Positions 1,641 to 13,408 of a stretch of 13,408 nucleotides of DNA are shown piece after piece. Positions within the stretch are counted from its first letter, which is position 1; each line of letters opens with the position of its first letter. The position numbers and the translations under genes are program-made. The stretch comes from a virus (taxonomy: Duplodnaviria; Heunggongvirae; Uroviricota; Caudoviricetes): IMG/VR virus record IMGVR_UViG_2700989274_000003. One strand, given 5' to 3'. The notes beneath the pieces are model-generated. The model saw nothing but the letters and a program-made list of their open reading frames with translations, made no database searches and was not told the origin of the DNA.

Positions 1641-4112
1641 TTAAGAATCAGCCTGACTCGGGATCAGTTTTTGCCAGATAACTGAAACGTATTTTGCCTG
1701 GTAACGGGCGTCATCAAGTGCATTATGGCGCTCACCTTCGAATGGAATAGCCGTTCTGGCATCGAAGTCTATGGCTTTCCCCAGCTCAACGATTGTGCGT
1801 ACATCGCGATCGTTGTAGTAACGCCACGGGCAGGGGATCCCCTGCCGTTCGTATGAACGGCGCAAAATCGTGTTGTCGAAGTTGGCTCCATTTCCCCAGA
1901 CCTGAACAAAAAATTCACCGGAGTTTTCGTCGATAAATTCCCACAATTGTAACAGTGCATCATCTAACGGGATTTCATCGGTCATAATGGCAGATTGCGC
2001 TTCGCGTGATTGCTTAAGCCACCATTTAATGGTGTCCCGATCAATGACTCCGCCAGCAGTTTCCAGATCGATAGTCTTACTAAATTCCGGTCCCATATCT
2101 CCGGTTTGCGGATCGAAAAATATTGCACCTATTGAGATGATCGGGGCATCAGGATTTTTTCCCATGGTTTCAAGGTCGATCATTAGATGGTCACACGTCC
2201 TGCTGGTGGATGTGATTTCTTGATGACCGTTCACCTTAATTGAGTGATCTGCCGTCTCGCCAGTTTCATTATCGCTATCGTGATGCTGATTGCCGCCAGT
2301 GTTCTCCTTGTGTGGATGTTCAGCGCCTTCCATTTCCTCCGGATCATCTTCCTGAACTTCAATCTGATACTCTTCATCGAATGTTTCCTGGTATGTTGCG
2401 TCGCCCATTACCGCGCCACAATCAGGGCAGTTGCCGCCGCCGGTCTGACCGCAGGCGGTGCAGACTTTTTCCACTTCCTGTTGCGCCACTGATTCAGGCT
2501 GTTTCGTTTCTGGCTCGTTTTGTAACGCATTTGGGCTGTTTTGTTCCGCTTTTTGGTAGTTCCGTTCCGATTCATGCTGGTTCTGGTTCACAGAATCGCG
2601 GGTCTGGATCCCCTTAACCCATTTCGGATCATTCGGGTCACTAATCCCTTCAACAAATTCACCACGTGATGCAGCAAGCAACTTATCGGCGTCAGGCTGG
2701 ATGATATTGGCTGCCTGCATAATTTTGTTTACTTCGTCAGCGGTAACTTTTATCGGCTCTGGTTGTTCTGAATCTTCAGCGGTATCTACATTTTGCGGTA
2801 AGCCCGTGTATGTGCCATTTTTTCGGGCAAAATATTCTTCTTTTGTGATTTCAGTGGCGCCAGCAGCCAGTGCCTTATCCAGACCAGAAAGTTTGTTTGC
2901 GCGACCGTATTTTTCTCCGTCCTTATCTGCGAAGAGGAAATAGAACGGCCCCTCACGCTCTACAGATGGTTCAGCTTCCGGCGCGGTTTCATTTTTTGGG
3001 ATATCAGATACCTCAGTTTCCACTGCATCAGTTTGTGTTTCTGATGACTGGAGAACATCAACAGTGCCCAGGTCTGTTTCTTCATTCTCAAACACGCCCT
3101 TTGTCGTCAGGTATTCGCAGATATATTTGTTCAGTGCTACGGGATCTTTGTGAATGTCGATCGGACGCTCACGGACAAGGCCAAAAATAGTTTGGCGGTC
3201 GTAGCGAAGGGCATCAGGCTGTTTGCGCATTGATGCCGAGATACGCTTCCAGTCTTCGCGGTCGTTGTCGATAACTTCATTTTTTGCCCAGCGATGGATG
3301 CTGCCGTCAATGTTTCCGGCATCCACATCACCAGGCCAGAGAGCGTAGGCCAGTTCGTCATCCAGTGTTTTCCATGTCTGCTTGTATTCGCGATGAATGG
3401 CAGCAATGACCGGGCTGATTTTTCCTGTTGAATTTTCAGTGTACTGTTGATTGGCTCTGGCGCGGGCGAGATCAACAACAGACGTGTATTTTCCGGTTTC
3501 CTTGCGTTCACCTTCGCGACGTTTTTTCCAGATGCGCATCTCTGCCTGAATTTCGGGCCATTTAGCACCAGGAATACATTTATGCTTAACCCACCCAATG
3601 GCGTGCAACTTAAGCTCCGGATACATGGCGTTAACTTCTGGCATTTTCATCAACGCTTCAACGATATGTCCGTCGAATGTTGCCATGTCTTCCTGCAACA
3701 ATTCCTGTGCGCTAATAACCATATCAACGGTGATGTTTTCACATGTGTCGAACTTAACCATGACAGCGTTCTGTACTTCAGGGGCCAGCTTGTCAAAAGT
3801 GACGTTCATCGGATCGGATTCAGTCTCAACCGGGACAAAAGAAGCAGACTCCTCATCCCAGCGGTTTTCCTGCATATATTCAGCATCCCATGAATCGAGG
3901 GCAGGGCGGGGTATGCCAGGTTTATCCTCGCAGACAATAAATTTATAAGCGCAGTCCTGAGCAGCCGGATAATGTTCCAGGAATTGCCAGTGAAATTTTG
4001 CTCGAGCACGGCGTTCGTCGCCAGCTTCAATGGCTGTGGCTACAGCCACAGCGCCTTCTTCCCTTGTTGCCAGTTCGTCAGGAATAGCGGCGCAAATAAA
4101 GACTTTACTCAT
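1641..4112 (-). CDS. Large phage exonuclease (often annotated exodeoxyribonuclease VIII-like) with C-terminal DEDDh 3'-5' exonuclease domain and internal zinc ribbon
   Basis: ORF 1641..4148; likely start is ATG 4112 (MSKVF..., GAGGT SD about 9 nt upstream). C-terminal about 200 aa carry DEDDh motifs: IDLETMG, VWGNGANFDNTIL, HNALDDARYQA. CTACGQTGGGNCPDCG (coding about 2411-2465) looks like a CxxC...CxxC zinc ribbon. Acidic low-complexity linkers. Confidence 0.8.
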   Translation of the reverse strand: MSKVFICAAIPDELATREEGAVAVATAIEAGDERRARAKFHWQFLEHYPAAQDCAYKFIVCEDKPGIPRPALDSWDAEYMQENRWDEESASFVPVETESDPMNVTFDKLAPEVQNAVMVKFDTCENITVDMVISAQELLQEDMATFDGHIVEALMKMPEVNAMYPELKLHAIGWVKHKCIPGAKWPEIQAEMRIWKKRREGERKETGKYTSVVDLARARANQQYTENSTGKISPVIAAIHREYKQTWKTLDDELAYALWPGDVDAGNIDGSIHRWAKNEVIDNDREDWKRISASMRKQPDALRYDRQTIFGLVRERPIDIHKDPVALNKYICEYLTTKGVFENEETDLGTVDVLQSSETQTDAVETEVSDIPKNETAPEAEPSVEREGPFYFLFADKDGEKYGRANKLSGLDKALAAGATEITKEEYFARKNGTYTGLPQNVDTAEDSEQPEPIKVTADEVNKIMQAANIIQPDADKLLAASRGEFVEGISDPNDPKWVKGIQTRDSVNQNQHESERNYQKAEQNSPNALQNEPETKQPESVAQQEVEKVCTACGQTGGGNCPDCGAVMGDATYQETFDEEYQIEVQEDDPEEMEGAEHPHKENTGGNQHHDSDNETGETADHSIKVNGHQEITSTSRTCDHLMIDLETMGKNPDAPIISIGAIFFDPQTGDMGPEFSKTIDLETAGGVIDRDTIKWWLKQSREAQSAIMTDEIPLDDALLQLWEFIDENSGEFFVQVWGNGANFDNTILRRSYERQGIPCPWRYYNDRDVRTIVELGKAIDFDARTAIPFEGERHNALDDARYQAKYVSVIWQKLIPSQADS

Positions 4113-4204
4113 TTGTTTTAACCTCATGACAGATTTAAGGATGAACAAATCCCTGCCATTGCTGGCATATAAGAATGAAACCGGATATTTATTACGGAAC
4201 TGTT

Positions 4205-4750: not shown

Positions 4751-4793
4751 AAAAAGGGCGGCAGAGCAGTCACGGAGTAAAACTGATACCGCC
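4751..4793 (-). terminator. Possible intrinsic terminator on minus strand (GC stem GGCGG/CCGCC, long loop, U5 tail)
   Basis: Minus strand reads GGCGG-(26 nt)-GCCGCCC-TTTTT. The loop is unusually long, so this is weak. Confidence 0.2.
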
Positions 4794-5148
4794 AAACGTC
4801 ACCAGAAAATTGATAACAGAGGGCGTTGCAGCGGGGTTGTCACTTAAGCGTATGGTCAACCTGACAACCCGGTGTCCTCAACGGGGAAGAAATAACCCCG
4901 CCATACTTACCGCCGCACCATTTCGCGGGTTGCCACAACCGGAAGCGCACGGTCGACGAAAATTTAACGACAGGCTATCTATGAACCAGCTACCTCGCCG
5001 TGCGCTTTCGCGTTATGGTCTGACTTTTCAGGGAAATATCCTTTCAGTAAACTGTCAGTGCCGGATGCTCACCCGTGTCCGGCGCACGCACTCCACCTCA
5101 CCCGTGGAGAACTCCTTAATTACCAACCTTAGCTTCGTTGGTTAGCTA

Positions 5149-5396: not shown

Positions 5397-5525
5397 TCAG
5401 CCGTTAGATTTTGCCGAACTGGAAAGCGCCTGTTTAAATTCGTTGAAGCTGTGAGCTTCTTCGCCTTCGGCAAGGCCTTCGAAGTATTCTTCGTAAGCCT
5501 TTTCCATGATTGTGTCAAAATCCAT
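5397..5525 (-). CDS. Small acidic protein (42 aa; MDFDTIMEKAYEEYFEGLAEGEEAHSFNEFKQALSSSAKSNG), not in supplied ORF track
   Basis: Hand-translated from the minus strand. ATG at 5525-5523 is preceded by AGGTGA SD and lies 1 nt after the upstream gene's TGA (TGAtATG). Stop TGA at 5399-5397. Fills the gap between the 78-aa and 72-aa genes. Confidence 0.45.
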   Translation of the reverse strand: MDFDTIMEKAYEEYFEGLAEGEEAHSFNEFKQALSSSAKSNG

Positions 5526-8539: not shown

Positions 8540-8962
8540 GTGGCAAAAGTTTTTACACAAGAAGAGCGAGAAAAAATTAAAGGGCAGGTTGTTGAACTCG
8601 TACGCCAGAGTGGGCGTGAGACGTTACGGCAACTGGAAGTCAAGACAGGTGCGACAAGATATCTGATGAGCGTTCTCGCAAGAGAGCTGGTTGCCAGCGG
8701 CGATGTATACAACTCCGGCTACGGGTTATTCCCCTCTGAACAGGCGCGTAAGGACTGGCAAAACGCCCGCAAAAAACTCTCGAGGGCAAAGGTGAAGAAA
8801 CCTGCTGTGGTTGATCCGGACCTTATCTGGTCATCACCTGACGGAGAAATACGTCGCTACGACAGTCGCCTAAACATAATCTGTCGCGAGTGCCGGAAGA
8901 GTGAAGCTATGCAGCGTGTACTGGCTTTCTATCAGGGTAATTTTCAGGAGGCGGTACTGTGA
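8540..8962 (+). CDS. Hypothetical protein (140 aa)
   Basis: GTG start 8540 with AGGAGG SD (8530-8535). The 16-bp RBS segment GGTAATTTTCAGGAGG is repeated exactly before the next gene. No family recognised. Confidence 0.6.
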   Translation: MAKVFTQEEREKIKGQVVELVRQSGRETLRQLEVKTGATRYLMSVLARELVASGDVYNSGYGLFPSEQARKDWQNARKKLSRAKVKKPAVVDPDLIWSSPDGEIRRYDSRLNIICRECRKSEAMQRVLAFYQGNFQEAVL

Positions 8963-9376
8963 GTGAAATTAGCTATCAGGCTTCAATTACCGCTGGCATT
9001 CGCATCAAAGGAGAGGAGCATGGAAATAAAACCAGAGGATGAGTTAAGCAATATCGTTTTATTTCCGGTAAAAGAGGATGACCCTCGTAATCAGGTTAAT
9101 TTTCTTTATGAGCCATCGGAAAGACCATATTGTCATCACGCCTCTGTCCGGGTTGACGAAAAAGAGCGTCAGGTCCGCTGTAAAATCTGCGGTGCAGTTG
9201 TGGAGCCATTTGACTGGATGCTCTCTGTGGCGAAAAGAGAAACCAGACTGGCAGATGATGTAAGGCTCTTGCGTCAGGAGGAGCGGGAAAGGCGAAAAAA
9301 TATAGAAAAGCTAATTCAGATTGAGCGTAACGCGAAAGCGCGGATACGCAGGGCGACAAAATCCAGAACTGAATAA
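8963..9376 (+). CDS. Hypothetical protein with CHH...CxxC putative zinc-binding motif and C-terminal basic coiled coil (alternative start ATG 9020)
   Basis: ORF 8963..9376. GTG 8963 follows the repeated AGGAGG segment; ATG 9020 has a strong GGAGAGGAG SD. Motif YCHHASVRVDEKERQVRCKICG, then LLRQEERERRKNIEKLIQIERNAKARIRR. Confidence 0.6.
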   Translation: MKLAIRLQLPLAFASKERSMEIKPEDELSNIVLFPVKEDDPRNQVNFLYEPSERPYCHHASVRVDEKERQVRCKICGAVVEPFDWMLSVAKRETRLADDVRLLRQEERERRKNIEKLIQIERNAKARIRRATKSRTE

Positions 9377-9469
9377 TTAAATTTAGCTCTGTTAAAAATT
9401 TAATCCTTAACCGGAGGGATTTCTGCACCCTCAGAACATCAGGAGGCCGCCCGAAAGGGCGGTAGTTAA

Positions 9470-9652
9470 ATGCGAAAGTTTAAAATAATTATTGAAACGG
9501 GAATAGCCGGTGGAGATTTCGAGGATGAATTCGAAGTGGATGATGATGCGACGCCTGATGAAATACATGACGAAGCAAAAGATATTTTCTTTAACTACTG
9601 CAATTACTCATATCACGAAATAAAAGACGAAGAGGAAGAACAAAATGGCTGA
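9470..9652 (+). CDS. Small highly acidic protein (60 aa)
   Basis: Product MRKFKIIIETGIAGGDFEDEFEVDDDATPDEIHDEAKD...KDEEEEQNG. AGGAGG (9441-9446) is separated from the ATG by a GC hairpin with a GAAA loop (9447-9462). Overlaps the next ORF by 8 nt. Confidence 0.5.
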   Translation: MRKFKIIIETGIAGGDFEDEFEVDDDATPDEIHDEAKDIFFNYCNYSYHEIKDEEEEQNG

Positions 9653-9821
9653 TTTTGGTTCAACTAAATACAACGTCAGTTTTGAAGAATGGCATGAACT
9701 GTTAATGGACTATGCAGAGTTACGTGGTGGCAGTGCTGCTGATGCTGAAGCATGGCGTGATGATTATGAAGCAGGAAAAACTCCGGTCGAAGCATATTGT
9801 GATGAGTGGGGCGATGAATGA
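9645..9821 (+). CDS. Small acidic protein (58 aa; MADFGSTKYNVSFEEWHELLMDYAELRGGSAADAEAWRDDYEAGKTPVEAYCDEWGDE), not in supplied ORF track
   Basis: Hand-translated. ATG 9645 with GAGGA SD about 8 nt upstream. Overlaps the upstream gene (ATGGCTGA) and the downstream gene (ATGA at 9818-9821). Confidence 0.5.
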   Translation: MADFGSTKYNVSFEEWHELLMDYAELRGGSAADAEAWRDDYEAGKTPVEAYCDEWGDE

Positions 9822-10134
9822 GCGAGGTTAATTATCAGGAAGGGCATGAAACGGCGGGGCAAGCAAAAACAGTGGCATGGCGATATCGCTACGTGAAAAA
9901 AAAGGCGTTACGGACTTTCAGGGGAAGTAGTGGTCTGGTGACTGGAAATATGTACCGAAAAAAGAGGATTGTAACGACAGGCCGAACTATGAAATTCAGG
10001 CCTTATTCACTGCCCCGCCAGTCCCGGTTACATCAGAAGAACTGGTTAAAGCTGTGCACTTTTATGAACAACTAAAACGCGAAAATCCACCAGCATCCGG
10101 AAACCTGATTACAGATTCCCAGATAAGGCAATGA
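9818..10134 (+). CDS. Hypothetical gene with frame discontinuity: frame A (9818...) carries two in-frame A AAA AAG heptamers; the protein-like downstream frame (9931..10134) is the -1 frame and has no start codon
   Basis: ATG 9818 is coupled to the upstream gene. Frame A after 9905 is R/K-rich and looks out-of-frame. The -1 frame 9931-10134 (…KEDCNDRPNYEIQALFTAPPVPVTSEELVKAVHFYEQLKRENPP…) looks protein-like but opens directly after a TAG (9928-9930) with no ATG/GTG/TTG. Heptamers at 9898-9904 and 9958-9964. Confidence 0.35.
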
Positions 10135-10567: not shown

Positions 10568-10629
10568 GACTGCGGGTGCTTGAGGCTATCTGTCTCAGGC
10601 ATGAACACCAAAAGGCAGATAGAGAAAAG

Positions 10630-10694
10630 CCCCAGTTAACATTACGCGTCCTGCAAGACGCTTAACATTAATCTGAGGCCATATCTATGCGACA
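10630..10694 (-). ncRNA. sok: Predicted Sok-like antisense RNA (coordinates approximate)
   Basis: Minus-strand sigma70-like promoter: -35 TTGACC (plus 10724-10729), 16-bp spacer, -10 GCTAAT (plus 10702-10707). The transcript would be antisense to the mok SD (GAGG 10675-10678) and start codon (10687). The 3' end is not defined; no clean terminator was found by eye. Confidence 0.3.
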
Positions 10695-10746
10695 CATAGA
10701 GATTAGCCTCTTACGGACCGAAAGGTCAAGGAGAAGCAGGCTATGA
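10687..10746 (+). CDS. mok: mok-like upstream reading frame (19 codons) translationally coupled to hok
   Basis: ATG 10687 with GAGG SD 8 nt upstream. Stop TGA at 10744-10746 overlaps the hok ATG 10743-10745 (ATGA). Much shorter than R1 mok. Confidence 0.4.
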   Translation: MRHIEISLLRTERSRRSRL

Positions 10747-10898
10747 AGCAGCAAAAGGCGATGTTAATCGCCCTGATCGTCATCTGTTTAACCGTCATAG
10801 TGACGGCACTGGTAACGAGGAAAGACCTCTGCGAGGTACGAATCCGAACCGGCCAGACGGAGGTCGCTGTCTTCACAGCTTACGAACCTGAGGAGTAA
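10743..10898 (+). CDS. hok: Hok/Gef-family type I toxin (51 aa), HokD/RelF-like
   Basis: Product MKQQKAMLIALIVICLTVIVTALVTRKDLCEVRIRTGQTEVAVFTAYEPEE. Single N-terminal TM helix and the conserved TRKxLCE...EVAxFxAYE Hok signature. AGGAG SD 9 nt upstream. Confidence 0.9.
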   Translation: MKQQKAMLIALIVICLTVIVTALVTRKDLCEVRIRTGQTEVAVFTAYEPEE

Positions 10899-12459: not shown

Positions 12460-12469
12460 NNNNNNNNNN
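12460..12469. other. Run of 10 N (assembly or scaffold gap of unknown true length)
   Basis: nnnnnnnnnn in the sequence. The flanks differ sharply in GC content and gene content. Confidence 0.99.
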
Positions 12470-13206: not shown

Positions 13207-13408
13207 GTTTCCGCCAAGGAACATGCAGACAAGCAAGGGGCTGCGGGCACTCGGCTACAACGTGAGGATCGGTGTTTGATCGAGGCGCCTGTGGCACACG
13301 CAGGCTGAGGAGCCAGGCGCTGTCCATTGCCTGATCAGGCCGCCCCCCTGTGCCTTGCCTGAGCAGTTGACCTGCATCAATGGGGCGGGAGAACGCTGCA
13401 CATTGCAC

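Follow-up and report, generated by a model that had tools for sequence, protein, structure and literature searches.

What do two very short, overlapping and strongly acidic genes contribute to the early region of a lambdoid prophage? The question is raised by a 13,408-nucleotide stretch of viral DNA (here called the window), for which an initial annotation, made from the sequence alone, described an operon of two mini-proteins and proposed them as DNA-mimic or anti-defence candidates of the kind represented by Ocr and ArdA. Both ORFs lie on the plus strand and were recovered as described there, ORF1 at 9470..9652 (60 aa) and ORF2 at 9645..9821 (58 aa), with translations that agree and an overlap of 8 nt (ATGGCTGA). 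Their acidic and aromatic composition was likewise confirmed: Asp and Glu together make up 33% of ORF1 and 28% of ORF2, aromatic residues account for 13% and about 15-16%, respectively, the net charges are -15 and -12, and the computed pI is ~4.05 for both.

The pair lies in a mosaic accessory stretch of a Qin/Rac-type prophage

The window represents an E. coli lambdoid prophage of the Qin/Rac type. Over the 521 bases that surround the pair, its sequence agrees with many E. coli chromosomes at 100% identity, and in strain 203740 the prophage that carries this locus adjoins ompW. The minus strand holds, in order, genes for an integrase, an excisionase and an 835-aa exonuclease, followed by ydfD, dicB, the DicF RNA, ydfC, ydfB, a DUF1391 gene and an S24/HTH repressor gene, while the plus strand runs from a P22-Cro-like regulator through a YdaT-like protein and a replication initiator (phrog_3729) to a DUF977/Ren-like gene (8540-8962, plus strand; Ren-like exclusion family phrog_142) and a zinc-ribbon gene (8963..9376, plus strand; phrog_1621, E 3e-56, with a weak match to Zn_Ribbon_TF). 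ORF1, ORF2, a decayed gene, sok/hokD and a DUF968 gene follow. Because the DUF977/Ren-like and zinc-ribbon genes intervene, the pair does not come directly after the replication gene, as had been claimed, but its placement in the early region stands: ORF1 is separated from the zinc-ribbon gene by a 93-nt spacer on the same early rightward strand, and no promoter-like or terminator-like site was found in this spacer or in the flanks of the pair. ORF1 and ORF2 are accessory ("moron-like") genes within a mosaic, nin-like stretch that extends from the replication genes to hok/sok.

The gene that follows ORF2 (9818..10134, plus strand) begins in an ATGA overlap with the ORF2 stop codon and carries a frameshift and an internal stop. 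Three-frame translation places the change of frame from +1 to +3, and RefSeq labels the identical locus "frameshifted; internal stop". The prophage is thus partly degraded, although ORF1 and ORF2 themselves are intact. Further downstream, at 10574-10898, lie the sok antisense RNA (Rfam, 106.7 bits) and hokD, and on the opposite arm the DicF sRNA (4756-4807) accompanies dicB and ydfD; both sets are typical cargo of Qin-type prophages. In the 835-aa "exonuclease" (1641-4148, minus strand), the sole part that Pfam recognises is a Rv2179c-like 3'-5' exonuclease domain at the C-terminus (residues 654-825), which is preceded by a long, very acidic, low-complexity middle region. The third small acidic ORF picked out by the initial annotation, at 5397-5525 on the minus strand, is indeed present and is the annotated ydfB (42 aa, net charge -7, phrog_2061), a part of the ydfA-ydfB-ydfC cluster of the leftward arm and unrelated to ORF1 or ORF2. 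Towards the end of the window, 10 consecutive N (12460-12469) precede GC-rich (59%) fragments of the IS66 family (DDE_Tnp_IS66_C, HTH_Tnp_1) on the minus strand, which continue to position 13408, and the rusA and antiterminator genes that stand 3' of DUF968 in the reference prophage are missing; the window therefore seems to end in an assembly gap or an IS junction.

Both ORFs are constrained genes whose acidity is a family trait

The existence of these proteins is not new, since identical ones are annotated in thousands of genomes (ORF1 in RefSeq as WP_001224662, "DUF7167 family protein", and ORF2 as WP_000753060, "hypothetical protein") and their families have been catalogued as Pfam DUF7167 and as PHROG 519 and 1997. 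DNA of the locus is present in 2543 of 5426 complete E. coli genomes (47%), with up to 6 copies in a genome. We compared 32 distinct ungapped coding alleles of the pair taken from viral contigs. In the commonest divergent allele, 17 of 352 coding nucleotides are changed and yet only 2 residues differ. By the Nei-Gojobori method, dN/dS for ORF1 is 0.02-0.23 where dS is measurable, while ORF2 gives 0-0.23 when E. coli-type copies are compared with one another and 0.38 against the homologue of phage Cba120. The conservation of both ORFs as coding sequence in related elements, on which the initial annotation had made its proposal depend, was thus borne out as strong purifying selection, with dN/dS of about 0.02-0.2. 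Together with the RefSeq annotation and the prevalence of the locus, these low ratios identify ORF1 and ORF2 as real, constrained genes.

Chance or non-functional ORFs of an AT-rich spacer would also be short and carry no functional annotation, as these two do, but we give such an origin practically no probability. It is refuted by dN/dS values well below 1, by a core motif that is kept at 30-40% identity in phages of both Gram-negative and Gram-positive hosts, by the confidence of the predicted folds and by the membership of both proteins in curated Pfam and PHROG families.

The negative charge, too, is a property of the families and not of these two sequences only: it ranges from -10 to -18 in 56 DUF7167 members and from -4 to -15 in 40 members of the ORF2 family. 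In both alignments, many columns are more than 75% Asp or Glu, whereas hydrophobic or aromatic residues occupy the invariant positions, a combination which argues that selection maintains a folded core together with a negative surface. Both families therefore display the high, conserved net negative charge that characterises DNA mimics as a class.

Translation signals of the pair and a predicted hairpin

ORF1 is preceded by a strong Shine-Dalgarno sequence, AGGAGG (9441..9446, plus strand), at a linear distance of 23 nt from the AUG; most E. coli-type alleles keep it in this form or as AGGAGA. Between it and the start codon, at 9446..9463 on the plus strand, stands a predicted hairpin with a 7-bp GC-rich stem and a GNRA loop (GCCGCCC-GAAA-GGGCGGU), which is present in both the MFE and centroid folds at a local energy of ~-15.5 kcal/mol. 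Across 22 distinct variants, 93.5% of the stem cells are paired, against 27-69% for slid partners; the variants include G-U wobbles, one double change from G-C to A-U, and GAAA or GGCA loops, and covariation among these 22 was not significant against shuffles. In some loci a mosaic junction falls directly 5' of the Shine-Dalgarno sequence, which indicates that this sequence, the hairpin and ORF1 travel together.

The hairpin may bring the Shine-Dalgarno sequence close to the AUG or otherwise modulate translation of ORF1, as a split ribosome-binding site or as a throttle. Split ribosome-binding sites are found in T4 genes 38 and 25, and by analogy the ORF1 leader, with its strong Shine-Dalgarno sequence ~23 nt from the AUG and a stable hairpin in between, would have an effective spacing of ~6 nt. 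It differs from the T4 leaders in that the covariation is non-significant and that the 3' arm of the stem, GGGCGGU, could equally be a weak Shine-Dalgarno sequence hidden by the stem. For ORF2, an SD-like GAGGA (9632..9636, plus strand) lies within the codons for the acidic tail of ORF1, 8 nt before the ORF2 AUG.

On this arrangement, we suggest that the two genes are probably co-transcribed in a long early rightward operon, that ORF1 would be translated from the AGGAGG set off from its AUG by the conserved hairpin, and that ORF2 would be translated by coupling through the 8-nt overlap and from its own GAGGA. Each gene is predicted to yield a compact, folded and strongly acidic mini-protein, comprising a beta-hairpin, helix and tail in the case of ORF1 and a three-helix unit in the case of ORF2.

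ORF1 is a full-length member of the DUF7167 family

ORF1 matches Pfam DUF7167 (PF23768) with 55.1 bits against a cut-off of 24.4, its residues 2-53 aligning to positions 1-60 of the 60-position profile, and it matches phrog_1997 over the whole profile (positions 1-57 of 57; E 9e-31). By these profile matches it is a full-length member of DUF7167, and we saw no difference between it and the family, whose proteins of ~55-60 aa share an IET...EV.DDAT.EEI...AKD.F...CNYG core and an acidic tail. The most conserved positions are M1, V6, I8, E9, T10, E22, D25, I32, A36, F40, C44 and Y46, after which the tail is always acidic. An AlphaFold2 model built with 56 sequences (pLDDT 87) has strands at residues 2-8 and 17-23 and a helix at 29-43, that is, a beta-hairpin and helix followed by the acidic C-terminal tail, and a Foldseek comparison with viral models returned only uncharacterised mini-proteins, from phAPEC8, Lactococcus phage 949 and a Streptomyces phage. 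We also looked for fusions of DUF7167 to an informative domain. A profile search gave 132 clusters, and those listed are all standalone proteins of ~34-99 aa with no extra Pfam domain. The term DUF7167 was not found in any paper in our literature search.

Homologues occur in a wide range of phages, including Enterococcus Herelleviridae and Phapecoctavirus-type genomes; only 15 plasmid records carry one. They are found in the nin regions of Klebsiella and E. coli prophages, upstream of the integrase gene in Yersinia, and in the early-left region of P22-like prophages, where the gene stands between Erf/SSB/Dam and a homologue of the pol III theta subunit (HOT). In Klebsiella phage VLCpiS11a (Guernseyvirinae; locus L002, 4001-5525), the DUF7167 gene runs 11 nt into the start of a gene for a 454-aa DUF2800/PD-(D/E)XK nuclease, and the two adjoin genes for a Gp2.5-like SSB and a DNA polymerase. 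In Enterococcus phage MDA2 (locus L004, 2471-3013), the gene just 5' of the homologue is deposited as an "exonuclease"; Pfam identifies its product as a DUF3850/ASCH protein, so on its domain content the deposited label looks doubtful.

Such repeated embedding of DUF7167 in DNA-metabolism modules raises the alternative that the two proteins are accessory subunits or modulators of the element's own replication or recombination machinery, which might for example tune a phage nuclease, SSB or initiator. The P22-like and Guernseyvirinae positions would suit this role, as would the window itself, where the DUF7167 gene follows the replication initiator and DUF977 genes, and an IncI2 plasmid on which the ORF2 homologue adjoins repA (see below). 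We nevertheless regard it as unlikely. The adjacent replication and recombination genes vary between elements, so that there is no constant partner gene, and adjacency by itself says little because the early regions of small phages consist mostly of DNA-metabolism genes anyway; moreover, the Enterococcus neighbour appears not to be an exonuclease at all, and the neighbours in Phapecoctavirus and Ackermannviridae are unrelated hypothetical or structural genes.

ORF2 belongs to a family shared by phages and conjugative plasmids

ORF2 has no match to a Pfam family, but it matches phrog_519 (E 4.5e-23) and by this match is a member of that family. It resembles Cba120 orf183 and its relatives in the core sFEEW...L...A...GGs.aD.daWR.dYdaGkTP..AW.deW, and differs from the full profile in that it covers only columns 76-137 of 143, the C-terminal core; some of the longer relatives are read-throughs. 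Among 40 members, the near-invariant residues are F13, W16, L20, W37, Y41, G44 and P47, which give the family a conserved aromatic core, and the AlphaFold2 model (pLDDT 88) is a three-helix mini-domain, with helices at 13-27, 34-42 and 47-55. An exhaustive HMMER search of 1.84 billion representatives retrieved 65 clusters of this family, mostly standalone proteins of 50-65 aa. Informative fusions were again sought: one long match (P0200) is a read-through in which a DUF1187 remnant is joined to ORF2, and the other long matches, which fall in multiple stretches of very long proteins, were interpreted as an effect of composition.

The family is present in 202 phage records, mostly of Ackermannviridae, and one member lies in the early region of a Mu-like phage. 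It is also present in 561 plasmid records, 516 of them conjugative, and ~418 plasmid records of IncI2 size carry a homologue at 80-90% identity. IncI2 is the backbone of many mcr-1 plasmids. On the IncI2 plasmid CP122748.1, the homologue (30516-30692, plus strand; 9001-9177 of locus L259) is 88% identical to ORF2, with dS of 0.69 and dN/dS of 0.09 against the window copy. There it overlaps the stop codon of a DUF1187 gene, in an operon that is headed by a CaiF/GrlA regulator and lies beside repA, and it is adjoined by SPFH/NfeD genes. Counted from mobC on the non-relaxase (presumed leading) side, it is approximately the 23rd listed ORF, beyond repA, a count made with an inferred oriT and polarity of transfer and from an incomplete PLSDB gene table. 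Anti-defence genes are enriched in the first 30 ORFs of plasmid leading regions (PMC11541004), and with the inferred oriT the homologue falls inside this zone. The only published functional claim for phrog_519 is a machine-learning anti-CRISPR flag on Kuttervirus members, whose PaCRISPR scores of 0.48-0.54 are marginal against a threshold of 0.5 (PMC9409062).

A different possibility is that the genes are expressed from the resident element and benefit the lysogen or plasmid host, through superinfection exclusion or by modulating host physiology or the nucleoid. Several observations lean this way: the pair has stayed intact although the prophage is partly decayed and the gene after ORF2 is a pseudogene, E. 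coli chromosomes carry the pair very often, its neighbours include the Ren-like exclusion family and hok/sok, and the ORF2 homologue appears to be stably kept on IncI2-size plasmids, next to SPFH/NfeD genes on the one that was examined. We consider such a lysogenic-conversion or exclusion function improbable all the same, since the lack of a promoter-like site of the pair's own makes expression in a repressed lysogen doubtful, and since both families also occur in strictly virulent phages (Ackermannviridae, Herelleviridae, Guernseyvirinae and Phapecoctavirus), where a role of this kind cannot apply.

ORF1 and ORF2 are independent cassettes

The description of the locus as an operon of two genes holds in so far as these are co-directional and carry signals for translational coupling, but not in the sense of a functional unit, as each gene is found without the other even in close relatives. 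In all 80 loci whose ORF1 protein is identical to that of the window, ORF2 lies downstream, with the 8-nt overlap in 79 of them, and 237 E. coli-type loci hold both genes. This is what an obligate two-component unit, such as a heterodimer or a toxin-antidote-like pair, would predict; however, these co-occurring loci are near-identical by descent, and the picture changes as soon as one moves away from them. At loci L176-L179, ORF2 is present at 76-79% identity with an Ead/Ea22-like gene upstream and without DUF7167, on the IncI2 plasmid CP122748.1 the 88% identical homologue follows DUF1187, and at locus L096 the place of ORF2 behind a DUF7167 gene of 79% identity is taken by a DUF551 gene. The more distant loci all carry one gene, and none carries both. 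As both proteins are acidic, there is also no charge complementarity between them. The distribution in close and divergent relatives largely refutes an obligate pair, which we hold to be very unlikely, and each gene is an independent cassette that moves between mobile elements.

Candidate inhibitors of nucleic-acid-binding proteins

The reading that we favour, with a probability of a little under two in five and somewhat more for ORF2 than for ORF1, is that ORF1 and ORF2 are small acidic inhibitors of basic nucleic-acid-binding surfaces on host or defence proteins. Each protein would act alone, soon after activation of the element or its entry into the cell. Its target would be a host or defence protein, whose positively charged, nucleic-acid-binding surface it would occupy in a stoichiometric complex and so block. 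Points in favour of such inhibitors include the evidence that the genes are real, the conservation of charge together with a core, the behaviour of the genes as independent cassettes, and their accessory or early positions in unrelated elements; their mobile accessory distribution, over many phage types and in the case of ORF2 also over conjugative plasmids, fits host-modulating or anti-defence genes. The same reading is weakened by the abundance of small acidic proteins in the early regions of phages, most of them with unrelated or unknown roles, by the marginal score of phrog_519, and by a leading-region argument that depends on an inferred oriT with repA in between.

A more specific proposal is that one or both families are nucleic-acid-mimicking inhibitors of host immunity or of DNA-handling proteins, in which case ORF2/phrog_519 would help lambdoid prophages, Ackermannviridae, Mu-like phages and conjugative plasmids of IncI2 and other types alike to become established or to counter defence, and DUF7167 would be a phage factor that ranges from Enterobacteriaceae to Enterococcus. 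This we put forward tentatively, as possible but doubtful. ORF1 and ORF2 are ordinary uncharacterised accessory genes whose families, found in many phages and in the case of ORF2 also on conjugative plasmids, make them reasonable candidates for inhibitors of host or defence proteins.

Their value lies mainly in being candidates for testing, as roughly one in two complete E. coli genomes carries them and they are under strong purifying selection, have confidently predicted folds and have kept their acidity. ORF2 is the best lead of this analysis: its family spans temperate phages, virulent phages and conjugative plasmids including IncI2, and this spread over phages and plasmids makes it a worthwhile candidate for screening. 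If either protein is an anti-defence or establishment factor, it would represent a compact new inhibitor family that bears on phage therapy and on the spread of plasmids; otherwise the locus adds two more ordinary accessory genes of an uncharacterised kind.

Comparison with known DNA mimics and small acidic inhibitors

The initial annotation had called the composition and size of the two proteins typical of Ocr and ArdA. Ocr (T7 gp0.3) is an all-alpha dimer of about 116-117 aa and ArdA a three-domain protein of ~166 aa, each an elongated mimic of a long stretch of DNA, so that these proteins are two to three times larger than ORF1 and ORF2 and the comparison of size fails. Searches of Pfam, NCBIfam, PADLOC and PDB-wide profiles (E<=10) gave no known anti-defence or DNA-mimic homologue of either ORF, and PADLOC had 0 matches at E<=1. 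The structural check that had been proposed came out against the kinship as well: neither profiles nor the predicted models bear any likeness to Ocr, ArdA, Gam or another solved DNA mimic. ORF1 and ORF2 are accordingly outside the Ocr family, sharing neither its homology nor its all-alpha dimeric fold, and outside the ArdA family, to which they have no Pfam, NCBIfam or PDB profile match and with which their size and fold are incompatible. Their motifs had 0 matches in the supplements of a functional screen of accessory genes and of a survey of plasmid leading regions, and neither WP_001224662 nor WP_000753060, nor functional data on either family, turned up in the literature search.

What the two proteins do share with Ocr and ArdA is strong acidity, carriage on mobile elements and likely early expression, and the ORF2 family, like ArdA, is found on conjugative plasmids. 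They differ in sequence and fold, being compact globular units of ~58-60 aa, and a monomer of this size could mimic a short length of duplex at most. Of the anti-defence or DNA-mimic proposal as a whole, then, the acidity as a family trait and the distribution as mobile cassettes are retained, while the kinship with Ocr and ArdA is not.

Closer in size (~50-90 aa) and charge are T7 gp5.9, lambda Gam, AcrIIA4, AcrF2, phi29 p56 and Ugi. The T7 gp5.9 gene lies just upstream of the exonuclease gene (gene 6), and the Guernseyvirinae DUF7167 gene that overlaps the start of a nuclease gene may be seen as a similar arrangement. A general link of this style between DUF7167 and exonucleases was weakened by the DUF3850/ASCH identity of the Enterococcus neighbour, which leaves only the Guernseyvirinae case standing. 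If ORF1 and ORF2 are indeed inhibitors of nucleic-acid-binding surfaces, each would represent a new family of such small acidic proteins, to be set in principle beside the DNA-mimic anti-restriction, anti-RecBCD and anti-CRISPR proteins.
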